Source of the DNA: Mustelus asterias
Lineage: Eukaryota
Assembly (NCBI RefSeq): GCF_964213995.1
Contig: NC_135813.1
Span: 61,256,001-61,320,000, forward strand
Length of the DNA stretch: 64,000 nucleotides
Direction: 5' to 3'
Position numbers and translations under genes: made by a program. Below, piece after piece: positions 8,600-55,019 of the stretch. Below the pieces are notes generated by a model. That model saw nothing but the letters and a program-made list of their open reading frames with translations. It did not search any database and was not told the origin of the DNA. Position 1 is the first letter of the stretch, and each line of letters opens with the position of its first letter.

Positions 8600-11500
8600 G
8601 AACAAAGAACAAAGAACAAAGAACAGTACAGCACAGGAAACAGGCCCTTCGGCCCTCCAAGCCTGTGCCGCTCCTTGGTCCAACTAGACCAATCGTTTGT
8701 ATCCCTCCATTCCCAGGCTGCTCATGTGACTATCCAGGTAAGTCTTAAACGATGTCAGCGTGCCAGCCTCCACCACCCTACTTGGCAGCGCATTCCAGGC
8801 CGCCACCACCCTCTGTGTAAAAAACGTCCCTCTGATGTCTGAGTTATACTTCGCCCCTCTCAGCTTGAGCCCGTGACCCCTCGTGATCGTCACCTCCGAC
8901 CTGGGACAAAGCTTCCCACTGTTCACCCTATCTATACCCTTCATAATCTTGTACACCTCTATTAGATCTCCCCTCATTCTCCGTCTTTCCAAGGAGAACA
9001 ACCCCAGTCTACCCAATCTCTCCTCATAGCTAAGACCCTCCATACCAGGCAACATCCTGGTAAACCTTCTCTGCACTCTCTCCAATGCCTCCACGTCCTT
9101 CTGGTAGTGCGGCGACCAGAACTGGACGCAGTACTCCAAATGTGGCCTAACCAGCGTTCTATACAGCTGCATCATCAGACTCCAGCTTTTATACTCTATA
9201 CCCCGTCCTATAAAGGCAAGCATACCATATGCCTTCTTCACCACCTTCTCCACCTGTGTTGCCACCTTCAAGGATTTGTGGACTTGCACACCTAGGTCCC
9301 TCTGTGTTTCTATACTCCTGATGACTCTGCCATTTATTGTATAACTCCTCCCTACATTATTTCTTCCAAAATGCATCACTTCGCATTTATCCGGATTAAA
9401 TTCCATCTGCCACCTCTCCGCCCAATTTTCCAGCCTATCTATATCCTGCTGTATTGCCCGACAATGCTCTTCGCTATCCGCAATTCCAGCCATCTTCGTG
9501 TCATCCGCAAACTTGCTGATTACACCAGTTACACCTTCTTCCAAATCATTTATATATATCACAAATAGCAGAGGTCCCAGTACAGAGCCCTGCGGAACAC
9601 CACTGGTCACAGACCTCCAGCCGGAAAAAGACCCTTCGACCACTACCCTCTGTCTCCTGTGGCCAAGCCAGTTCTCCACCCATCGAGCCACTTCTCCTTG
9701 TATCCCATGAGCCTTAACCTTCTTAACCAACCTGCCATGTGGGACTTTGTCAAATGCCTTACTGAAATCCATATAGACGACATCCACGGCCCTTCCTTCA
9801 TCAACCGTTTTTGTCACTTCCTCAAAAAACTCCACCAAATTTGTAAGGCACGACCTCCCTCTTACAAAACCATGTTGTCTGTCACTAATGAGATTGTTCT
9901 GTTCTAAATGCACATACATCCTGTCTCTAAGAATCCTCTCCAACAACTTCCCTACCACGGACGTCAAGCTCACCGGCCTATAATTTCCTGGGTTATCCCT
10001 GCTACCCTTCTTAAACAACGGGACCACATTCGCTATCCTCCAATCCTCAGGGACCTCACCCGTGTCCAAAGAAGCGACAAAGATTTCCGTCAGAGGCCCA
10101 GCAATTTCACCTCTCGTCTCCCTGAGCAGTCGAGGATAGATGCCATCAGGCCCTGGGGCTTTGTCAGTTTTAATGTTCCCTAAAAAACCTAACACTTCCT
10201 CTCTTGTAATGGAGATTTTCTCTAACGGGTCAACACCTCCCTCCGAGACACTCCCGGTTAACACGCCCCTCTCCTTCGTGAATACCGATGCAAAGTAATC
10301 ATTTAGGATCTCCCCTATTCCCTTGGGTTCTAAGCATAATTCCCCTCCTTTGTCCCTGAGAGGTCCTATTTTCTCCCTGACAACTCTTTTGTTCCTAACG
10401 TATGAATAGAATGCCTTAGGATTCTCCTTAATCCTGCCTGCCAAGAACATCTCGTGACCTCTTTTTGCCCTTCTAACTCCCCGTTTGAGATCTGTCCTAC
10501 TCTCTCTGTATTCCTCCAGAGCTCCATCTGTTTTTAGTTGCCTGGACGTAACGTACGCCTCCCTTTTCATTTTAATCAGATCCTCAATTTCCCTGGTTAT
10601 CCACGGCTCTCGAATCCTACCTTTCCTATCTTTCCTTTTTACAGGCACATGCCTATCCTGCAGCCTTATCAATAGTTCCTTAAAAGACTCCCACATGCCA
10701 GACGCGGACTTACCCTCGAACATCCTCTCCCAATCAACATCCACCAATTCCTGCCTAATCCGGCTATAGTCAGCCTTCCCCCAATTTAGCACCCTGTCCG
10801 TAGGACAGCACTCATCCTTGTCCATTACTATCCTAAAGTTAACAGAGTTGTGGTCACTATTTGCCACATGTTCCCCTACCGAAACTTTGACGACCTGACC
10901 GGGCTCATTTCCCAGAACTAGGTCCAGTATAGCCCCCTCTCTAGTCGGGCTATCTACATACTGTTCCAAAGAACCTTCCAGTACGCATTTTACAAATTTC
11001 TCCCCGTCCGGTCCCCCAGCTCTAAGCACTTTCCAGTCTGTGCCAGGGAAATTAAAGTCCCCCACTACAACAACCCTATGTTTTCTGCACCTATCCAGAA
11101 TCTCCTGACATATCATTTCCTCCACTTCCCGTGGGCTGTTGGGTGGTCTGTAGTACACCCCCAGCATAGTGACTGCACCCTTCCTGTTTCTGAGTTCCAC
11201 CCACAGCGACTCAGTACATGACCCCTCTAAGTTGTCTACCCTCTGCACCGCGGTAATATGCTCCTTAACTAATATCGCTACTCCCCCACCTTTTTTAGCC
11301 CCTCCTCTGTCTCGCCTAAAACACTTATACCCCGGAATATTCAGCTGCCAGTCCTGTCCTTCTTTTAACCAAGTTTCCGTCACCGCAACCACATCCAAAT
11401 TCCGCACAAGCATTAAGGCCCTAAGTTCGTCTGTTTTACCCGTTACACTCCTCGCATTGAAGCAGATGCACTCCAGACCTCCAGGCCCAGTCAGGTCCTC

Positions 11501-11628
11501 CTCCTCCAGAGTGCTCCTCTTCTTAGCTAGCCTTGCCTCAGTATTTACTGACCTCCTGTTTTGTTCCCCACCCCCCTGCCACACTAGTTTAAATCCTGCC
11601 GAAACACTCTAGCAAAACTCCCAGCCAG
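8600..11628 (-). mobile_element. Young 5'-truncated CR1 LINE (last ORF1 codons, full ORF2, 3' UTR, (GTTCTTT)n tail)
   Basis: Uninterrupted ORF2; microsatellite tail at about 8600-8625; ORF1 C-terminus LAGSFARVFRQDLN* ends at 11584. Confidence 0.95.
8684..11584 (-). CDS. CR1 ORF2: APE endonuclease plus reverse transcriptase
   Basis: 966-codon ORF with FNARS, TETW, GDFN, SDHN (APE) and NYRPVSLTS, DFSKAFD, GVPQGSVLGP, FADD (RT). Confidence 0.93.
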   Translation of the reverse strand: MWQGGGEQNRRSVNTEARLAKKRSTLEEEDLTGPGGLECICFNARSVTGKTDELRALMLVRNLDVVAVTETWLKEGQDWQLNIPGYKCFRRDRGGAKKGGGVAILVKEHITAVQRVDNLEGSCTESLWVELRNRKGAVTMLGVYYRPPNSPREVEEMICQEILDRCRKHRVVVVGDFNFPGTDWKVLRAGGPDGEKFVKCVLEGSLEQYVDSPTREGAILDLVLGNEPGQVVKVSVGEHVANSDHNSVNFRIVMDKDECCPTDRVLNWGKADYSRIRQELVDVDWERMFEGKSASGMWESFKELLIRLQDRHVPVKRKDRKGRIREPWITREIEDLIKMKREAYVTSRQLKTDGALEEYRESRTDLKRGVRRAKRGHEMFLAGRIKENPKAFYSYVRNKRVVREKIGPLRDKGGELCLEPKGIGEILNDYFASVFTKERGVLTGSVSEGGVDPLEKISITREEVLGFLGNIKTDKAPGPDGIYPRLLRETRGEIAGPLTEIFVASLDTGEVPEDWRIANVVPLFKKGSRDNPGNYRPVSLTSVVGKLLERILRDRMYVHLEQNNLISDRQHGFVRGRSCLTNLVEFFEEVTKTVDEGRAVDVVYMDFSKAFDKVPHGRLVKKVKAHGIQGEVARWVENWLGHRRQRVVVEGSFSGWRSVTSGVPQGSVLGPLLFVIYINDLEEGVTGVISKFADDTKMAGIADSEEHCRAIQQDIDRLENWAERWQMEFNPDKCEVMHFGRNNVGRSYTINGRVIRSIETQRDLGVQVHKSLKVATQVEKVVKKAYGMLAFIGRGIEYKSWSLMMQLYRTLVRPHLEYCVQFWSPHYQKDVEALERVQRRFTRMLPGMEGLSYEERLGRLGLFSLERRRMRGDLIEVYKIMKGIDRVNSGKLCPRSEVTITRGHGLKLRGAKYNSDIRGTFFTQRVVAAWNALPSRVVEAGTLTSFKTYLDSHMSSLGMEGYKRLV

Positions 11629-21835: not shown

Positions 21836-22843
21836 TTGCATTTGACTAAATATGTGTGTTCTCGTTATAGTGGCAATGAAATATAACCCGGTGTAACAAC
21901 ATCGAAGCAAGACTGCTAACATTTCTTGTATTTTTAAATAACCGCTCAAACCGCCAGATACCAGCTGCACACACTCAGTAAAATGTCTTCGACAATTTGT
22001 CGGAACAATAACAACCCTTTTTTTCCAATTTCAGAAACAAACGCTGAGCCGCTATAATTAGTTCTGGCAGTGAGATGCGGTGTCAGCCGTGGTCCACCAA
22101 TACGAGGTTTGTCCGTCTCGGACTAACGATCTACAACATCGCTTTGCTTCCCTTGCCTATTTGTAGACTGAAACTACGATAACTTAGACAAGTGCCCCCA
22201 GTTCCTAACGTGAAAATCCCGCTGCATAATGTGGAGTTTAGCTGAATATTCGGATAGTGTAATATCTGGAACCCCTTGGAATTATAGAGCAATGTCTAAA
22301 ATTATCAGGTTTCACTATTGTCCAAAAAAACAGAATACCAATTGCAGACGCAGGAGGACAGAATCCCTACAGTGCATAAGGAGTTCATTCGGCCCACCGA
22401 GCCTGCACCGATTCTGGTAAAGTGCATCCCACCCAGGCCCAATCACGCACACACCAATAACTACCACCCGCCCCCTCCCCCCCCCCCCCCCCAATTCGAA
22501 ATGCGGAAGGTAGTACTGAGCATTTTGCACTGGGCGGTTGTCACTGAGTTTGGAGACGAGTGACCGCGAGTTCCAGCAATTCGTCACACCATCCATGCAC
22601 AGTATCAATCGTAGGCTGGGGAATGAATCGTGGTAACGCTCCACGTTAAATGTAAACTGAATCGTGTGAAAAAATATAGTCTTTGAACAGGGCTGTGAGG
22701 AAAGGGAAAGAGGGTAGGCGTGGGGTAGGGAAGGGGTGGGGGTTGGGGGGGGGGGCTGGTGGGGGACAACCCCGTCTGAAAAAACCCGTGGAATTCAAAG
22801 GGCGATAGAATGTCAGAATGCAAACTCGCGCCCTTTGAAAGAC

Positions 22844-22904
22844 TGGCTAAGATCAAGTGTAGTATCTGTTCTTATCAGTTTCTTGGCTAAGATCAAGTGT
22901 AGTA
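22844..22904 (+). pseudogene. Tandem U2 snRNA 5' fragments (not a complete U2 gene)
   Basis: Exact match to TGGCTAAGATCAAGTGTAGTATCTGTTCTTATCAGTTT; no Sm site and no 3' stem-loops. Confidence 0.85.
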
Positions 22905-23201
22905 GGATTGGATGCTGCACTTGGTTGAGGTCATTAGGTTACGCTGAGGCTTCATATGTTTCATATGAAGCAATTTTTAAAAGCGGCATCCCGGCCTTTT
23001 GGCTAAGATGCAAATGAGCTCAAGTCTTGGAGGAGGTGTTGCTTTGCTCCTCCAATCAACTTGGCTCATGTAGATCAGGCCCAGGACAGGGTGATTTGGT
23101 CGCTCGCCCTGTCTTGTCAGCCTGGATCTGAAATGTCTCAACTTGTTGAGACTCTGAATTGGATTTGATTTGATTGAATTGGAAAAGCATATAAAAAAAA
23201 A
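22844..23201 (+). mobile_element. U2 snRNA-headed structured retroposon (SINEU-like) with A tail and TSD
   Basis: U2 nt 18-55 at 22844-22881, U2 nt 17-38 at 22883-22904, U2 nt 4-27 (22/24) at 22986-23009; several hairpins; A run at 23193-23201; AAAGACTG direct repeat at 22838-22845 and 23199-23206. Confidence 0.7.
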
Positions 23202-26040
23202 GACTGTCCAATTAGTCTATTCGTCGTATATTTGCTTTCGCTTTTCCAAAGGTTATCTACTTTCTTTTTAAGCATTGCCATGTTTAAGTTGGCCACGCTC
23301 TTATAGCTAAGATAACACATTCCTAACGGCCCCTTTGGTAATGTGAATATCATTTCTATCTCCTCGTTCTTCTAGAAATTATGTTCAATTTATTGTCTCT
23401 TGCTTTCGTCTTGCTGCGACAGACTGACTTCTAATTAAAAACAAGATCTGCAAAGCATTCCCTTGGTTTCTAGTGGAACTACATAATTTCATGTTCTGTT
23501 CTAATTAAAATATCAAAGTACTGGTGCAAATTTAATAAATTGCCTCTGCGCCCTCTCCAAGTCCTGGACTGTAACATATGGCGCAGGTTCATGGCTATCG
23601 CCGAAATATTATTCGGTACTGATTCAGAAGTTCTAAATCAATACATTGAAAGGCAATACTCCTGATGTACTCTAATTCAATCCACCACGCCAGTGATTGT
23701 AAAGTACATTTTTGTCATTTTTAAGTTACGCTGCACTCATGAAATTTGAGGATTTGAAGAGGCAAATGCCAGTGGTTGTGCTATAACCGGGAGATACTCG
23801 GGCAGGGTTATTTTCCAGTCAGCGATTTTCCACTGTAATAATCAAAGCAAATCAAAAACTTAATATTTGGGAATAATCCCAAGGATCTAACTTTCTGCAC
23901 CTGAAGAGAAGAGAATGCATTGCGATGAACTACAATTGGCTATGATTAGACAGGATAGAATTGAAGCAACCAAGGACAGACCCACCCAGCTGTATGATGG
24001 TACAAATGTGTTGGAGGAGGAGGATGTGGACAACCATTCCAAAGGCGACAGGTAAGTGAAGAAGGGTGTGATGAAATTGTTTACCTATGACATAATCACA
24101 TGGGAATACCTTCGAGAATTTGATAATGGATCTGAAAGAAATATTGATGTCAGCGGAAACAGTGAGGCTTTCAATGCCGATACTTTGTGGGACGAATGTT
24201 GAATGGGTCAAATGTAACATTGAGAAAGATGTGGAAAACTAAAAAGTGAACTTTCCCCGGGATATATTATTCCATGAATCGTTGTACGAAATTCCGTTCC
24301 CTGTCATTTCATGCAATTGCTTACAAATTGATAGCATACAATTTACACATGATTTTAGCACGTGTTCTTTGAAGAAATGAAGAATCTAAACTTTCGTCGC
24401 GCAGTTGAAGAGTGCAGCAAACAGCCAAACATAAATTCAGTCAGTGTGCCAAGGTAACTGCATAACCCGAGAACATACCATTTCCCTTCCAAATACATAG
24501 ACTCAGAAAGATATAGCACATAATAACCATTTTCCGCCCACCCTGCTTCTGCCGACAGCATGAAGGAGATATCGAATTAGAGCCACAAAGGCCAGCTTTA
24601 CTCCACGTAGCCCTACGTACTTCCCATCTTCAAATACTTGTCCAAATTGCCTTTGGAATGCTATTTTGAAACTTCTCACCATTTCAGGCATTGAGTTCCA
24701 CTTGGCAACCATTCGACTTGTAGTTATTTTCTCCTCTTATCGCCTCGAGTTCTTTTGCTGAATTACTCTGGTTACGTGCCGCTGACGCACGTTTCGTCTT
24801 ATTGCTCAAGTTCCTTCAAGAGCATTGCTGTCAAATCTGCACTTAACCACTCTCCTCTTGTCTCTCCAGATAACTGAGCTTTTTTCTCCCTGTTGCAAGG
24901 GCACAGGAGAGAGTTTGTGCCCATTGGTGCTTATCCTTTTTTCAGGCCTCTTATCCTGCCGTCTCTCCTCACCCCCTAACCCTCCTCCTTAACCGCACAT
25001 GGTATCCACAGTCTCCACTCTCAGCAACCGCATTGGCCTCTCACACCGTTGGACAGCCCCGGTTCCCTCTGCTCTCCGTATTCTTCCTCTTCCTTATCTC
25101 TTTTTCGTGCCCGCTCCTCTGCCCCTCGCAGGACCCGATGCGTTCTGACTCTGCTCGCCCCTGAATGTCCCAGCGTCAAGTCGAAGCGCGCTCCCTGTAA
25201 GTTTATAGCCATCACTGGGGCTGGCGCGCCAGCACATGTGCACGCGCATAACTGTTCAAAGGTGAGAGGGAATTTGGAACAGGAGGCGGGTATCACTAAA
25301 TGCTCATGTTTGCAGCGAGCCGTTTCTCTCCTCCTCCCCGTGGAGTCCCCGATGGGATGTGATCGGGATCTGTTGTTTGACGGGTGCGTGGCATTTGAGC
25401 AAGTCTCTGAATCTACCTGAACTCGAAACGGGTTTATTATTTCAAATATCTTTGGGATTCATCCAACAGTGTGCGAATGAAATCTTCCCCCACAGGCTGA
25501 AACCGATTCTGTGTTATCATTCTTTTTACAAGCATAATCTCACGTCTCTGATCTGATCCTCAAATCCTCATCCCCACGCCAGTTGCCACTATGTTTTGCA
25601 CCTTGTGCACCCACCCCTTCGCTCCCCCAAACCCACAAATTAGGGGCCTTCCCTATTGTCACCCCAGTAAATATCTTCACCGGCCTCTCCAAGCGTTTGC
25701 TTGACCAACTCGGCGTTGTCCAAAATTAAACAGAAAGCAGCAACTAAGTGTTATTGCCTAAAGGGCTATTTTCACTTGCTTGTTTTCGGACTCTTCATCT
25801 CGGTTACGCCATTACCTTTATTTCTCCCTTAGTTTTTTCTCATCTGAAATCGATCATTCATCGCTACTTCCTGTTTTCTGTCCCCTTAGCTATGTAGGCA
25901 AGCTGCAATCATTGACCCTGCAATGTACTAGGCTTCCATTGAGGTAACAAGTACATTAATTGTAATCCTATCAAACGACTTTTAAATCCAAATACACCAC
26001 ATCAAATGTACCACCCTCGTCTACTTCATCCTTTGTGTAA

Positions 26041-28420
26041 TAAGAACATAAGAACATAAGAAATAGGAGCAGGAGTAGGCCATCTTGCCCCTCGAGGCTG
26101 CCCCGCCATTCAACAAGATCTTGGCTGATCTGAAGTGAATCAGTTGCACTTACCCCCTGCTCCCCATAACCCTTAATTCCCCTACCGATCAGAAATCCAT
26201 CTATCCGTGACTTAAACATATTCAACGAGGTAGCCTCCACCACTTCAGTGGACAGAGAATTCCAGAGATTCACCACCCTCTGAGAGAAGAAGTTCCTCCT
26301 CAACTCTGTGCTACACTGACCCCCCTTTATTTTGAGGCTGTGCCCTCTAGTTCTGGTTTCCTTTCTAAGTGGAAAGAATCTCTCCACTTCTACCCTATCC
26401 AGCCCCTTCATTGTCTTATAAGCCTCTATAAGATTACCCCTCAGCCTTCTAAACTCCAACGAGTACAAACCTAATCTGCTCAATCTCTCTCATAATCTAC
26501 ACCCCTCATATCCAGTATCAACCTGGTAAACCTTCTCTGCACCCCCTCCAAGGCCAATATATCCTTCCGCAAATAAGGGAACCAAAACTGCACACAGTAT
26601 TCCAGCTGCGGCCTCACCAATGCCTTGTACAGATGCAGCAAGACTTCTCTGCTTTTATATTCCATCCCCCTCGCGATAAATGCCAACATCCCATTTGCCT
26701 TCTTGATCACCTCTTGTACTTGCAGACTGAGTTTTTGCGACTCATGCACAAGGAACCCAGGTCCCTTTGCAGAGTAGCATGTTGTAATTTTTTTCCATTT
26801 AAATAATAATCCAATTTGCTATTATTTCTTCCAAAGTGAATAACCTCGCATTTGCCAACGTTATACTCCACCTGCCAGATCCTCGCCCACGCACTCATCC
26901 TATTCAAATCTCTCTGCAGACCTTCCGCTTCCTCCACGCAATTCACTTTCCCACTTATCTTCGTGTCGTCAGCAAACTTTGTTACCCTACACTCAGTCCC
27001 CTCCTCCAGATCATCTATGTAAATAGTAAACAGTTGAGGCCCCAGGACCGATCCCTGTGGCATGTCACTAGTCACCATCTGCCAACCAGAAAAGCACCCA
27101 TTTATTCCAACTCTCCGCTTCCTGTTGGATAGCCAATCCCCAATCCACGCTAACACCCTCCCCCCAACTCTGTGTGCCCCAATCTTCTGCAGCAACCTTT
27201 TGTGAGGCACCTTATCGAATGCCTTTTGGAAATCCAAAAACACCACATCTACCGGTTCCCCTCTGTCAACCGCACTAGTCACATCTTCATAAAAATCCAG
27301 TAAGTTCGTCAAACACGACTTTCCTCTCATGAATCCATGCTGCGTCTGCTTGATGGAACCATTCTTATCCAGATGGCCTGCTATTTCTTCTTTAATGATG
27401 GATTCCAGCATTTTCCCAACTACAGACGTTAAGCAAACCGGCCTGTAGTGACCCGCCTTTTGTCTACTTCCTTTTTTAAACAGCGGCATAACAGTAGCCG
27501 TTTTCCAATCAGCTGGCACTACCCCAGAGTCCAGTGAATTTTGATAAATAACCACTAACACATCCGCTATTACCTCTGACATTTCTTTCAGTACCCTGGG
27601 ATGCATTCCAACCGGGCTCGGGAACTTGTCCATCTCAGTCCCGTTAGTCTACCAAGCACTGCCTCTCTAGTAACAATAATTGTATTGAGTGCCTCTCCTC
27701 CTACCAACACTCGATCGTTAATATTCGGTAAGCTATCTGTATCTTCCACCGTGAAGACCGACACAAAAAACCATTTCCTCGTTTTCCACTATTAAATCCC
27801 CCCTCTCGTCCTCCAAGGGTCCAACATTCACTCTAGCCACTCTATTCCTTTTTATATATCTGTAAAAACTTTTACTATTATTTTTTATGTTTAGAGCTAG
27901 TTTAGTTTCATAATCTATCTTTCCTTTATCGCTTCTGTAGTCACTTTTTGTTGTTTTTTAAAGCTTTCCCAATCTTCTAAGTCTCCACTATTTTTGGCCA
28001 CTCGATACGCATCGGTTTTTAATTTAATACTCTCCTTTATTTCCTTCGTTATCCACGGCTGGCTATCCCTTTTCTTACAGTCCTTCTTTATCACCGGAAT
28101 ATATATTTGCTGAGTACTGAAAAAGATCTCCTTAAAAATCCTCCATTGTTCCTCAGCTGTCCTACCTACAAGTCTGCTCTCCCAGTCCACCCAGCCAATT
28201 CAGCCCTCATCCTGTCGTACTCCCCTCTGTTCAAGCAGAGGACATTGGTTTGGGACCCTACTTTCTCCCCCTCCATCTGCACCAGAAATTCGACCATATT
28301 GTGATCACTCGACCCAAGAGGGTGCTTCACAAGAAGATCCTTAATTCTACTTGTCTCGTTACACATTACCACATGTAAGATAACTCGTTCTCTCGTTGGT
28401 TCTGCAACATACTGTTCAAT
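26041..28420 (-). mobile_element. CR1 LINE, 5'-truncated and frameshifted
   Basis: ORF2 fragments between 25971 and 28372 (SDHN, HYRPVCLTS, DFQKAFD, FADD); (taagaaca)n tail at 26041; inserted into an older CR1 remnant (25860-26040). Confidence 0.9.
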
Positions 28421-44442: not shown

Positions 44443-47346
44443 TCAAGCTATCCCACTCCCTATCATCCTGGTGTGCTCCATGTGCCTATCCAATAACCGC
44501 TTAAATGTTTCTAAAGTGTCTGACTCCACTATCACTGCAGGCAGTCCATTCCACACCCCAACCACTCTCTGCGTAAAGAACCTACCTCTGATATCCTTCC
44601 TGTATCTCCCACCACGAACCCTATAGTTATGCCCCCTTGTAATAGCTCCATCCACCCGAGGAAATAGTCTTTGAACGTTCACTCTATCTATCCCCTTCAT
44701 CATTTTATACACCTCTATTAAGTCTCCCCTCAGCCTCCTCCGCTCCAGAGAGAACAGCCCTAGCTCCCTCAACCTTTCCTCATATGACCTACCCTCCAAA
44801 CCAGGCAGCATCCTGGTAAATCTCCTCTGCACTCTTTCCAGCGCTTCCACATCCTTCTTATAGTGAGGTGACCAGAACTGCACACAATATTCCAAATGTG
44901 GTCTCACCAAGGTCCTGTACAGTTGCAGCATAACCCCACGGCTCTTAAACTCCAACCCCCTGTTAATAAAAGCTAACACACTATAGGCCTTCTTCACAGC
45001 TCTATCCACTTGACTGGCAACCTTTAGAGATCTGTGGATATGGACCCCAAGATCTCTCTGTTCCTCCACAGTCTTCAGAACCCTACCTTTGACCCTGTAA
45101 TCCACATTTAAATTAGTCCTACCAAAATGAATCACCTCACATTTATCAGGGTTAAACTCCGTTTGCCATTTTTCAGCCCAGCTTTGCATCCTATCTATGT
45201 CTCTTTGCAGCCTACAACAGCCCTCCACCTCATCCACTACTCCACCAATCTTGGTGTCATCAGCAAATTTACTGATCCACCCTTCAGCCCCCTCCTCTAA
45301 GTCATTAATAAAAATCACAAAGAGCAGAGGACCAAGCACTGATCCCTGCGGCACACCGCTAGCAACCTGCCTCCAATCCGAAAATTTTCCATCGACCACC
45401 ACCCTCTGTCTTCAGTCAGACAGCCAGTTACCCATCCAATCGGCCAACTTTCCCTCTATCCCACACCTCCTCACTTTCATCATAAGCCGACCATGGGGGA
45501 CCTTATCAAACGCCTTACTAAAATCCATGTATATGACATCAACTGCCCTACCTTCATCAACACACTTAGTTACCTCCTCAAAAAATTCTATCAAATTTGT
45601 GAGGCACGACTTGCCCTTCACGAATCCGTGCTGACTATCTCGGATTAATCCGCATCTTTCTAAATGGTCGTAAATCCCATCCCTAAGGACCCTTTCCATC
45701 AATTTACCAACCACCGAAGTAAGACTAACCGGTCTATAATTACCAGGGTCATTTCTATTCCCTTTCTTAAACAGAGGAACAACATTCGCCATTCTCCAGT
45801 CCTCTGGCACCATCCCCGTGGACAGCGAGGACCCAAAGATCAACGCCAAAGGCTCTGCAATCTCATCCCTTGCCTCCCACAGAATCCTAGGATATATTTC
45901 ATCAGGCCCAGGGGACTTATCGACCTTCAGTTTATTCAAAACTGCCAAGACATCCTCCCTCCGAACATCTATTTCCTCCAGCCTATTAGCCTGTAACACC
46001 TTCTCTTCCTCAAAAACATGGCCCCTCTCCTTGGTGAACACTGAAGAAAAGTATTCATTCATCACCTCGCCTATCTCTACTGACTCCATACACAAGTTCC
46101 CACTACTGTCTTTGACCGGCCCTAACCTCACCCTGGTCATTCTTTTATTCCTCACATAAGAGTAAAAAGCCTTGGGGTTTTCCTTGATCCGACCCGCCAA
46201 GGACTTCTCATGTCCCCTCCTAGCTCTCCTAAGCCCCTTTTTCAGCTCATTCCTTGCTAACTTGTAACCCTCAATCGAGCCATCTGAACCTTGTTTCCTC
46301 ATCCCTACATAAGCTTCCCTCTTCCTTTTCACAAGACATTCCACCTCTTTTGTGAACCATGGTTCCCTCACTCGGCCATTTCCTCCCTGCCTGACAGGAA
46401 CATACCTATCAAGGACATCCAGTATTTGTTCCTTGAAAAAGCTCCACTTTTCATTAGTTCCTTTCTCTGACAGTTTCTGTTCCCAACTTATGCCCCCTAA
46501 TTCTTGCCTAATCGCATCATAATTACCCCTCCCCCAATTGTAAACCTTGCCCTGCCGTACGGCCCTATCCCTCTCCATTGCAATAACAAAAGACACCGAA
46601 TTGTGGTCACTATCTCCAAATTGCTCTCCCACAACCAAATCTAACACTTGGCCCGGTTCATTTCCCAGTACCAAATCCAATGTGGCCTCACCTCTAGTCG
46701 GCCCATCCACATATTGTGTCAGGAAACCCTCCCGCACACACTGCACAAAAACTGCCCCATCCAAACTATTTGACCTACAAAGGTTCCAATCAATATTTGG
46801 AAAGTTAACGTCCCCCATGACAACTACCCTGTGACCCCTACACATATCCATAATCTGCTTAGCAATTTCTTCCTCCACATCTCTATTACTATTTGGGGGC
46901 CTATAGTAAACTCCTAGCAACGTGACCGCTCCTTTCCTATTTCTAACTTCAGCCCATATTACCTCAGTGTGCAGATCCCCCACGAAGTGCCTTTCCGCAG
47001 CCGTTAAACTATCCTTGATTAACAATGCCACTCCTCCACCTCTTTTACCAGCTTCCCTACACTTAGTGAAACATCTATACCCCGGAACGTCCAACAACCA
47101 TTCCTGTCCTTGTTCTACCCACGTCTCCGTAATGGCCACAACATCGTAGTCCCAAGTACCAATCCACGCCCCAAGTTCATCTACCTTGTTCCGGATGCTC
47201 CTTGCATTGAAGTAGACACACTTCAACCCACCTTCCTGTCTACCAGTACCCACCCTTGACCCTGACACCTTCCCCAATACCTCACCACCCTCACTGACTT
47301 CTGGACTACAACTCCCTTTCCCACTCCCCTGACAAATTAGTTTAAA
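44443..47346 (-). pseudogene. CR1 ORF2 (APE plus RT) with a single premature stop
   Basis: ORFs 45412..47457 and 44443..45402 are in the same frame, separated by LSD*RQR. Confidence 0.88.
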
Positions 47347-47667
47347 CCCCCCTGAAGAGCCGTAACAAATTTCCCTCCGAGGATATTGGTGCCCCTCTGG
47401 TTCAGGTGCACCCCGTCCTGTTTGTACAGGTCCCACCTTCCCCAGAACGTGTTCCAATTATCCACGTATCTGAAACCCTCCCTCCTACACCATCCCTGCA
47501 ACCACATATTTAACTGCACTCTCTCCCTGTTCCTCAACTCGCTATCACGTGGTACCGGCAACGTACCAGAGATGACCACATGTTTCGTCTTGGCTCTCAG
47601 CTTCCAGCCCAGCTCCAGAAATTCCTGCTTTAAATCCCCGTCCCTTCTCTTACCTATGTCATTGGTA
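47337..47667 (-). CDS. CR1 ORF1 C-terminal fragment (SGNH esterase-like)
   Basis: TNDIG...VVISGTLP...LYKQDGVHLN..GT motifs typical of the CR1 ORF1 esterase domain. Confidence 0.75.
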
Positions 47668-52172: not shown

Positions 52173-53799
52173 GATGACAGGGAGTCAAATTGAAACATAT
52201 AAGGCCCCGAGGGGAGTTGACAGGAGGCTGTTGAGATCTGTTTCCCCTTGTGGGAGAGACTGGAACTAGGAGACATAGCTTTGAAACAAGAGATCTTCTA
52301 TATAAGTGGGTAAGGAAAAATTCTTTCGCTCAGAGGGTCGTTTGTCTTTCGAATTCTTTGCCCAAAAAACAAGGTCATTGAATATTTTTAAGACAGACTG
52401 ATTCTTGGCTGCCAAGTTTATTTAAGGGTATCGGGGGGTAGACGGGAAAGTGGATTTAAGACCACAATCAAATGAACCATGATCTTACAGAATAGCAGAT
52501 CAGGATTGGGGGGCTAAATGGTCGAATGCTGTTGCTGGCCGTATGTTCTTGTCAGTTTCCTTTGCTTCTAATTTGATCTTATCAAGGATTTGAACCATCA
52601 GATAATTTACTCTGGTGTTGGCAGCATCACCTTTTAAGATATCACATTCAAGGCAGAGGTAGCAAGACCTCTACAGACACTGGGGGAACAATCTGCTATT
52701 CTTTGCATACATAAACCTAAGTCAATCAGATTTTCTGTTATTCTATATTTTCATCAATAAAGCGGAGGAACTCATTAAATAAGGTAATTAGAAATACCGT
52801 AGGACAATATTCTAAAAACGGCTTTCATTTTTAATCCATATTTTCCGAGTGTCAATTAATTTTGTCCGGAATCGTTTTGTCTATAACGTTCGTGAGGATA
52901 TGATTTTATACAACTCCTATTTAAAAAGTAGGTTTCGACATGAAATATACTCGCTATTGTCAATTGGGAAAAATATTACCAGACGAGCGGTCTGGGTAGA
53001 ACAGGGCTGTGTTTGATATATAGGTTGGCGGCGTGGTATGTTTTAAATGCATTTAATGGTGGCTATAATGGAAGGGTTTGCTTGGACGTAATCTACAAGA
53101 ACGTTGGAAGCTCCTACGTGAAATAATAAAGAAAAACTTAGTGGAGAAGCTATTCCTGATGTACTTCTGTTCTGACTGCATTCTGTGTAAAGCCGTCCAG
53201 TGGGCGGTTTAAAGAAACGGTGTTCAAACATTGCAATCCAAAGCTAAGAAACTGGAAAAGATAGTTGAATACACTTTAGGACGTATCAAAGGGTTTATGG
53301 AACCATTTATAGTCTTACAGTTAATTTGGATTCTTAGTGTTGTTACTACTTTGAGACATTTTAACCATTCTTCATGAAATAAAATTTCCCGGTCCTGTGT
53401 ACACGAAGTGCAATATTGCCACCTTCTGGCTCGTAAGCATATGGCACACAGGGATGGCGCAGTCGCATTCGAATTGACGGATTTCATGCAAGCCTCCCAT
53501 CGGAGGCTGGAATTCTATTGCAATTATTCATCAGGTACATAAATATTTGTGAATGTTGGTGCAGGTATACATTTAATATACCCGGTGAGGAACAAACGCA
53601 TACATGGTCAATGCATTTTCTTGATGTAATAAATAATGTTCTGCATGCATTTGTTGTTCAGAATGTCATCAGTAATTGAAAACATGTCAGATATTGAATT
53701 GGCTCATAATTCCCAGGCTATATTTAATAAAGGATACGACATCCGAAGTGGAAAATATGTCCGACTGAATGCCTGTCTACATGGACTACATGTTGTCTA

Positions 53800-54722
53800 C
53801 ATGTTGTCTACATGGACTTCAGTAAGGCCTTTGACAAAGTCCCTCATGGCAGACTGGTGCAGAATGTGAAGTCGCATGGGATCAGAGGTGAGCTGGCAAG
53901 GTGGATACAAAACTGGCTCAGTCAAAGAAGGCAGAGGGTAGAAGTGGAAGGGTGCGTTTCTGAATGGAGGGCTGTGATCAGTGGTGTTCCTCAGGGATCA
54001 GTGCTGGGAACTTGGCTGTTTGTAATATATATAAATGATTTGGAGAAAAATGTAACTGGATTGATTAGTAAGTTTGTGGACGACGCAAAGATTGGTGGAT
54101 TTGTGGATAGCGATGAGGACCAACAGAGGATACAGCAGGATATGGATAGGTTGGAGACTTGGGCGGAGAGATGGCAGATGGAGTTTAATCCGGACAAATG
54201 TGAGGTAATGCATTTTGGAAGGTTTAATACAGATAGGAAATATACAGTAAATGGCAGAACCCTTAGGAGTATTGATAGGCAAAGGGATCTGGGTGTACAG
54301 GTACACAGGTCACTGAAAGTGGCAATGCAGGTGGAGAAGGTAGTCAAGAAGGCATACGGCATGCTTGCCTTCATCGGCCGGGGTGTTGAGTTTAAAAATT
54401 GGCAAGTCATGTTGCAGCTTTATAGAACCTTAGTTAGGCCGCACTTGGAATATAATGTTCAATTCTGGTCGCCACACTACCAGAAGGGTGTGGAGGCTTT
54501 GGAGAGGGTACAGAAAAGATTTACCACAATGTTGCCTGGTATGGAGGGCATTAGCTATGAGGAGAGGTTGGAGGAACTTGGTTTGCTCTCACTGGAGCGA
54601 CGGAGGTTGAGAGGAGACCTGATAGAAGTCTACAAGATTATGAAAGGCATGGACAGAGTGGATACCCAGAAGCTTTTTCCCAAGGTGGACGAGTCAATTA
54701 CTAGGGGGCATAGGTTTAAGGT
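53800..54722 (+). mobile_element. CR1 LINE RT fragment, truncated at both ends
   Basis: MDFSKAFD...GVPQGSVLG...FVDD...TRGHRFKV then abrupt loss of homology; (TGTCTACATG)-like stutter at the 5' junction. Confidence 0.9.
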
Positions 54723-55019
54723 GTTCACAAATCGTTTTGGTCTTTTCAGCGGGATGATCCAATTTAAGATCCACAGTTTCCATGAGGGATTTGGTCGGAA
54801 CATGCACGGGAGCTAACGTTGTGCAATGTGTGAAGATCGAAGAAATTCGTTGTTCATGGTTGCACGCGTGGTCTCAAGTTCGAACCATCGCATACATATT
54901 GGAGTTGTTCTTGCCGTGACCCTAATGCAGAATGTGTTCACGGTGCTGCAGTGTAGCTTTACCTAGAACAACCAAAACTATATACTCCATTGCCATAGTG
55001 AAAAACAGTCAAGATAATA

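Follow-up and report, generated by a model that had tools for sequence, protein, structure and literature searches.

A young U2-headed retroposon family in the shark Mustelus asterias and its probable Keno-type driver

A 64,000-nucleotide stretch of the genome of the shark Mustelus asterias (NC_135813.1, positions 61,256,001 to 61,320,000; hereafter the window, with positions counted from its first base) contains at 22838..23206 an A-tailed unit that is headed by pieces of U2 small nuclear RNA (snRNA) and enclosed in short direct repeats. The unit belongs to a SINE (short interspersed nuclear element) family that is, by the number and likeness of its copies, real and young. Some SINE copies lie inside U2 genes at the exact site of a partner long interspersed nuclear element (LINE), and the family therefore likely uses the enzymes of that LINE; a Keno-type LINE is very probably its driver. 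The full account, in which this young U2-headed retroposon has a Keno-type driver and source copies transcribed from the U2 genes that they have entered, appears on balance to be correct.

The proposed cycle would start with the LINE endonuclease, which would nick U2 between nucleotides (nt) 38 and 39 and, far more often, loose look-alikes that read GTAGYA ahead of the cut. A copy landing in a U2 gene would adopt nt 1-38 of that gene as its head and could then be read from the gene's RNA polymerase II (pol II) promoter, and its A-tailed RNA would be reverse-transcribed at new sites. An insertion that duplicates nt 39 to about 58 would give rise to double-headed daughters like the window copy, and the antisense arm, by pairing back onto the head, would stop the RNA from behaving as U2 does. 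U2 genes might thus serve a promoterless SINE as a nursery that provides a fresh head, a promoter and a disarmed branch-point sequence, with genome-wide scatter through GTAGYA sites, a view to which we give slightly better than an even chance.

The family is large. A 21-base word from the conserved tail occurs 4,313 times in the genome, a lower bound on copy number, and the reversed control word does not occur. Taken in order of position, the first 30 tail-word loci all prove to be SINE bodies, either whole or truncated at the 5' end, and 15 of these 30 copies have target-site duplications. A search with the window element yields 44 matches at 88-100% identity, with 40 of 2,242 candidates scored. 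In a set of 145 distinct recovered copies, partly biased to the subfamily of the window copy and to double heads, 118 have a U2 head, 26 of which begin at U2 nt 1. The typical unit is about 330 bases long. Among 140 copies, 55 are enclosed by target duplications whose core measures 9-24 bases, whereas shuffling the flanks gives such a core in 4 of 689 pairs; the flanks of dispersed copies are diverse. The 110 near-full aligned copies fall into many subfamilies with a mean identity of 90.7% and a minimum of 77.8%, while 27 window-like copies average 98.1%. An earlier sequence-only reading of the window had proposed a non-autonomous, U2-headed retroposon resembling the SINEU elements of crocodilians, for which many dispersed copies that share a tail and have A tails and distinct target duplications would speak. 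The multi-copy family, its A tails and its duplications support that proposal, and a single-copy body is contradicted by the tail count.

SINE copies also cluster, with 11 of 99 gaps between them shorter than 600 bases where 0.08 would be expected. In tandem arrays the newest copy seems by eye to lie at the 5' side, but a nearest-neighbour test gives that order in no more than 12 of 20 pairs and does not establish it. Several copies (L012, L023, L036, L115, L184, L210) lie in or beside one abundant short repeat. Four of 20 listed sequencing runs were compared with the family, which matches 643 contigs in X5 (organism B), 122 in X17 (organism J, presumed RNA), 1 in X12 (organism F) and 0 in X8 (organism C); small shares carry no weight here, and contigs bear on neither start site, strand nor level. 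Since contigs of X5 (organism B) and X17 (organism J) span the whole SINE body in many variants, the family probably extends beyond one genome.

The partner LINE was reached through a zf-RVT search in which 150 of 1,389 candidates were scored. It is about 5.3 kb long and has the layout of two open reading frames (ORFs) of the Tx1 type. One copy keeps ORF2 open for 1,135 amino acids with endonuclease (APE), reverse transcriptase (RT) and zf-RVT domains, and ORF1 encodes ZCCHC3-type RNA-binding domains and a zinc knuckle. Full-length copies begin with U2 nt 1-33/35, and those in the U2 arrays on C24 and C21 have U2 from nt 38/39 as their 3' flank. The published Keno target is U2 nt 38/39, with the 3' side running from nt 39 onward (PMC4640811; PMC6136364). 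By its domains and this target, the partner is likely a Keno-type Tx1 LINE. In an RT comparison with 94 homologues, the best reach 45-46% (unnamed and amphibian) and none is labelled Keno; the segment matches of highest identity to the LINE protein are models from Heterodontus (82% and 72%) and Scyliorhinus (69%). The LINE tail word has 320 exact occurrences. Because none of 30 position-ordered LINE ends lies at U2 nt 39, its specificity is loose, not strict for U2 genes.

Some features of the LINE stand apart from its link to the SINE. At L142:7128-8186 on the minus strand, the two RNA-binding domains of ZCCHC3 are both matched by ORF1 (E 2e-27 and 4e-11), which suggests that ORF1 of this lineage is akin to the host protein ZCCHC3. 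A unit of 8,035 bases, made up of one intact U2 gene and a Keno-type LINE inside a 5'-truncated U2 copy, is amplified about 16 times in tandem at C24:44.81-44.94 Mb (L141, L161, L162). At L225 (C1:85.71 Mb), the sequence after the LINE 3' end looks by eye like a reversed spacer of the variant U2 gene, a hint that U2 loci attract insertions elsewhere than at the precise cut site too.

SINE copies occupy the same site in U2 genes. Six SINE tails lie directly before U2 nt 39, against none in the control and 0.003-0.06 expected for 100-2,000 assumed targets. At C24:43060550, one gene closing the canonical U2 array retains 400 bases of canonical upstream sequence (95.8%) and its nt 1-38, directly ahead of a SINE. 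That SINE has lost an internal part; behind it come a degenerate duplication of nt 39-55, a truncated LINE, another copy of the duplication, a further SINE and finally the rest of U2 from nt 39. A variant U2 gene, scoring 175 bits in 448-base units, likewise holds SINEs on C21, C14, C8 and C1; the copies at L199, L203, L204 and L157 lie behind the upstream spacer of the variant and are followed by U2 nt 39 onward. The C8 and C14 blocks may be working genes, and the C1 block itself looks retroposed.

The arrays bear further marks. At C21:28.05-28.08 Mb (L165, L166, L205-L209), the variant U2 type is about 90% identical to the main type, has a different spacer and is heavily hit by LINEs and SINEs. 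In the canonical array at C24:43.02-43.05 Mb, U2 nt 19-37 is repeated back to back at seven places, possibly left behind when the Keno site was hit by an insertion or repaired.

The flanks of dispersed copies point back to these genes. The last seven upstream letters of the variant, joined to the head, occur at 16 places in the genome: five array positions on C21, three SINEs in full gene context, one dispersed LINE with 92 flank letters, and seven dispersed SINEs (two are duplicates, leaving six independent) that carry 7-93 flank letters without U2 downstream, some with clear duplications around the whole. Two further SINE heads carry the canonical flank CCGGC. Because mature snRNA cannot supply upstream letters, they must derive from a U2 gene or its read-through RNA. 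The simplest reading of the genomic arrangement is that U2-resident copies are the source copies and are transcribed from U2 genes, which we consider probable.

Double and triple heads, a recurrent 5' addition of snRNA pieces, are consistent with such sources. Double heads number 49 and 38 in two partly overlapping sets of matches, and 17 of the 49 are LINE copies on C24. Their outer pieces end at nt 33-58, and no match has an outer piece reaching nt 65 (this search would overlook pieces that end at 61-64 if the inner head behind them is full). In-place duplications end at nt 52, 53, 55 and 58, so the outer heads fit a gene start plus a target duplication. The outer piece of the window copy ends at nt 55, and the duplication of nt 39-55 that it contains also flanks a SINE within the C24 U2 array. 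Three other copies share a 55-to-6 junction, including L188, which is 98% identical to the window copy; the window junction would be this junction minus a short deletion. Among the U2-resident copies, L203 is nearest to the subfamily of the window, at 93.5% identity. Excerpts of PMC5322556 give no U2 truncation positions for comparison.

Several observations weigh against U2-resident sources and a Keno-type driver. In the part of the arrays fetched, no U2-gene resident belongs to the window's own subfamily, the youngest. The junctions of outer heads are nearly all unique, a pattern read as template switching in crocodilian SINEU-2 (PMC4494074). Upstream letters show an RNA or template that begins before U2 +1, which fits read-through of tandem arrays and not initiation at +1 in those copies; transcription and its start site are deduced from genomic DNA. 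Only 6 of the 4,313 SINE tails are at the U2 site, so that almost every insertion has gone to some other place. The two elements have no long 3' tail in common, only a short terminal motif and an A run. The LINE survey covers 150 of 1,389 zf-RVT candidates, and other L1/Tx1 families fall outside it.

The best-surviving alternative keeps the family and its Keno-type driver and derives the heads from template jumps onto U2 snRNA or read-through RNA. Dispersed copies on neighbouring promoters would then be the sources, and copies in U2 genes would merely reflect where the driver prefers to insert. The uniqueness of the outer-head junctions, several of which have a few letters in common, and the small number of resident copies found speak for it, as do the case made for template jumps in SINEU-2 (PMC4494074) and reported jumps of R2 to snRNA (PMC3414825). 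Jumps onto read-through U2 RNA would also account for the flank letters, whereas jumps onto mature snRNA cannot yield them. Template jumps do not, however, predict that outer pieces stop at nt 58, in agreement with duplication lengths. Against them stands also that this doubled arrangement occurs in situ, flanked on either side by the duplication. The two 5'-truncated LINEs preceded by a U2 piece (L145, L146) read as having inserted into a SINE head and not as products of jumping, because SINE body follows their 3' end. Taken together, these data leave template jumping as a possible but doubtful origin of the heads, and sources resident in U2 genes remain the preferred reading.

The link between SINE and Keno-type LINE goes beyond the shared gene site. 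At 36 SINE insertion points the commonest bases at -6 to -1 spell U2 nt 33-38, although the final A was partly favoured by the way in which the boundary was set; G and then a pyrimidine precede the A at 17 of the 36, against 14% in the background. Among 30 position-ordered LINE ends, six abut a SINE where 0.015 would be expected, and the two elements alternate in arrays around one repeated duplication. Both carry a U2 head with an antisense arm. The arm on its opposite strand reads like the U2 target, and opposite-strand insertions of SINE and LINE at the arm (L038, L183, L092, L095) support recognition of the DNA upstream of the cut.

Mobilisation by a different A-tail-recognising L1/Tx1 family, with the Keno-type association reflecting shared hot spots, is improbable by comparison. 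It gains from the missing long shared tail and the unsurveyed L1-clade families, and from one LINE end that abuts a headless, truncated SINE (L235) and so points to hot spots; the same locus weighs against head-to-head annealing as a possible cause of the tandem arrays. Set against it are the SINE insertions exactly at the Keno site with their duplication of nt 39-55, a loose target that spells U2, the opposite-strand insertions at the arm, and the common head-and-arm design. Origin of the SINE as a non-autonomous LINE derivative of the SIDE or Bov-A type was considered separately and rejected, as the SINE has no similarity to either untranslated end of the LINE beyond the head and terminal motif. 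Apart from 8-base words, the U2 head and that motif, no SINE-LINE similarity was found, and no LINE shares the SINE body.

Against a perfect complement of U2 nt 9-38, the 30 bases of the arm after the head loop comprise 16 identical positions, 8 that keep pairing through G-U and 6 others, and none of 2,000 shuffles pairs with the head as well. The LINE arm is shorter and of the same kind, and 3 of 2,000 shuffles pair as well. U2 nt 28-38 are paired in 90 of 98 SINE copies. Pairing is kept by 19 of 31 common variants versus 38 of 132 rare ones, and common variants are few in stems (35 common to 134 rare) compared with unpaired columns (65 to 53); as the structure derives from the same alignment and the copies share descent, this test is supportive and not proof. 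The arm is thus predicted to mask the branch-point and U6-pairing segments. The sequence-only reading had noted that GUAGUA and the U6-pairing segment are kept; they are kept as sequence, but given the predicted masking they would hardly lie open the way they do in U2.

Such a fold could also belong to a functional, highly expressed U2-derived host small RNA whose retro-copied pseudogenes make up the family, and the fold scores (z -11.9 for a typical copy, -7.9 for the window copy), the conserved stems with variable loops and a U-rich tract between hairpins are in keeping with this, yet the long succession of subfamilies (78-100% identical) implies that the sources were many and kept changing, Rfam offers no fitting family and no conserved single locus was seen, which makes a host RNA the least credible of the explanations.

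The window copy illustrates this anatomy on the forward strand. Its 5' target-site duplication, AAAGACTG, occupies 22838..22845 and is repeated directly at 23199..23206. Its last two bases also match U2 nt 18-19, and alone it is short and moderate evidence. As the earlier reading had cautioned, the repeat is short and overlaps the A run and the U2 match; with 8 bases it is weak and falls under the detector cut-off. The U2 pieces are placed by comparison with the genome's own U2 gene (L062). The outer one, nt 18-55, lies at 22844..22881 (38/38 identical, E 1e-18) and probably combines the 5' portion of a host U2 gene with a target duplication of nt 39-55, inherited from the source copy. The inner head, nt 17-38, follows at 22883..22904 (22/22 identical) and stops at the Keno cut site. 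Both pieces had been recognised from the sequence alone; the doubled head that they form holds for this copy and a few dozen others, and does not describe the family unit, which has a single head of nt 1-38/39.

Behind the head come a variable hairpin loop (22905..22912; 35 junction variants among fetched copies) and the antisense arm to U2 nt 9-38 (22913..22942; by comparison with the perfect complement). A 10-bp hairpin (22949..22971; folding and motif check) is separated from the next by a T5-A4 tract (22972..22983) that resembles the family 3' end, is not a consensus Sm site and may be the end of a left monomer. An older internal U2 piece at 22986..23016, probably the head of a right monomer, has 27 identities in 31 columns, matches nt 10-27 exactly and keeps a fold like stem-loop I. 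The earlier reading had seen this third piece as nt 4-27, and the match extends to nt 4-33. By fold and alignment, two long imperfect hairpins follow, one with a loop that differs among subfamilies (23014..23069) and one with pair-keeping changes among them (23073..23128), and folding gives a 7-bp hairpin at 23135..23152. The conserved 3' tail (23153..23192) ends in most copies with AAAGTAT and then a T run, the short terminal motif that also ends the partner LINE. An A tail of 9 bases, read directly from the sequence and noticed before, closes the element at 23193..23201.

Covariance and motif searches bear on the nature of the body. Rfam finds nothing at gathering score over the whole window, and on the element it gives a U2 match only, below threshold (34.4 bits vs 46), so the body is not U2. 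A simple U2 processed pseudogene, already discounted in the earlier reading, is excluded by a non-U2 body common to thousands of copies. That reading had also found no Sm site, and a motif check with the Sm motif as generally given agrees for the element, whereas U2 itself has one. Derivation of the left arm from U1 or another RNA was rejected, as Rfam returned U2 alone both for the window copy and for one with a long loop; by its complementarity the arm is explained as antisense U2. An HDV-like ribozyme in the long-loop variant was judged by eye and dismissed, as the helices make a simple hairpin. ARAGORN finds no tRNA in the whole window and a motif check no box B in the element, which contains T4 and T5 runs; these features make transcription by pol III unlikely.

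Elsewhere in the window, positions 415-891 on the forward strand hold an immunoglobulin light-chain V frame (V-set E 6e-15) that runs straight into a J-like motif, as if V and J were already fused in the germline. Light chains of this germline-joined kind are typical of cartilaginous fish, and the frame, like the LINE matches to Heterodontus and Scyliorhinus, fits a chondrichthyan host. A different LINE type, presumably CR1-like, has left reverse-transcriptase frames at 8684-11608, 44443-47457, 26707-27648 and 53731-54816, one of them 974 amino acids long.

The transcription of SINEU elements is described as an open question (PMC4494074), and their mechanism was still listed as not shown in 2018 (PMC5786205). 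The shark family makes the question directly testable, because the family is young, its driver has open frames and copies lie behind U2 upstream regions. If the proposed cycle is true, it would provide a general route to snRNA-headed SINEs and an answer to how SINEU elements are transcribed. The SINE would then be a passenger of a U2-targeting LINE, in parallel to R2 passengers in ribosomal RNA genes, though in a pol II snRNA gene. It would also show how the branch-point recognition sequence can travel within a parasite that likely keeps it out of reach. With its thousands of recent insertions, the family further offers candidate markers for the phylogeny of sharks.

Short non-autonomous retroposons are familiar from cartilaginous fish. 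HE1 is a chondrichthyan SINE with a tRNA-related head and a tail shared with a LINE. CmiSINE and SacSINE1 have tRNA-related heads and LINE-shared tails (PMC5499810), whereas the shark element has neither tRNA nor box B. No snRNA-headed SINE outside crocodilians and no non-autonomous Keno passenger were found in the literature searched, with Repbase, Dfam and most subscription papers, which may already list the family, outside that search.

Among elements of the U2 site, Utopia uses the same nt 38/39 position and makes 20-base duplications in reptiles, but has a restriction-like endonuclease where the partner LINE has an APE domain (PMC4640811). The partner shares the APE endonuclease and the published 3' target, U2 nt 39 onward, with Keno, and the SINE uses the same site; the partner differs in its loose specificity, with none of the 30 ordered ends at nt 39. 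The R2 SIDEs offer a parallel as non-autonomous passengers that sit at the driver's site in a multicopy RNA gene and depend on the transcription of that gene (PMC3414825). SIDEs, however, are R2/R1 elements that have lost internal parts, possess a ribozyme and do not leave the 28S genes (PMC3414825), whereas the shark SINE has no body shared with the LINE, keeps the host RNA 5' end as its head and spreads genome-wide.

The closest likeness is to crocodilian SINEU. Shared features include a U2-derived head, repeated 5' snRNA additions, an internal older U2 piece, a poly(A) tail, a length below 500 bases, copies lined up in tandem about a common duplication, the lack of a pol III promoter, internal T runs and no LINE-shared tail, together with a target in common with a Tx1 LINE and a driver, probable in the shark, from a Keno-related Tx1 group that can itself carry a U2 head (PMC4494074). 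Crocodilian elements have U1 or U2 heads and target a Mariner element, Mariner-N4_AMi (PMC4494074), whereas in the shark family U2 heads alone were seen and the target is the U2 gene with its loose look-alikes. U2-gene residents and copies with U2-gene flank letters are seen in the shark, and excerpts of PMC4494074 describe no antisense arm to the head of crocodilian elements and report that SINEU was not found outside crocodilians. By structure the shark family fits the definition of SINEU; its origin is expected to be independent of SINEU-1/2/3, and it extends SINEU-type elements to a second vertebrate class.

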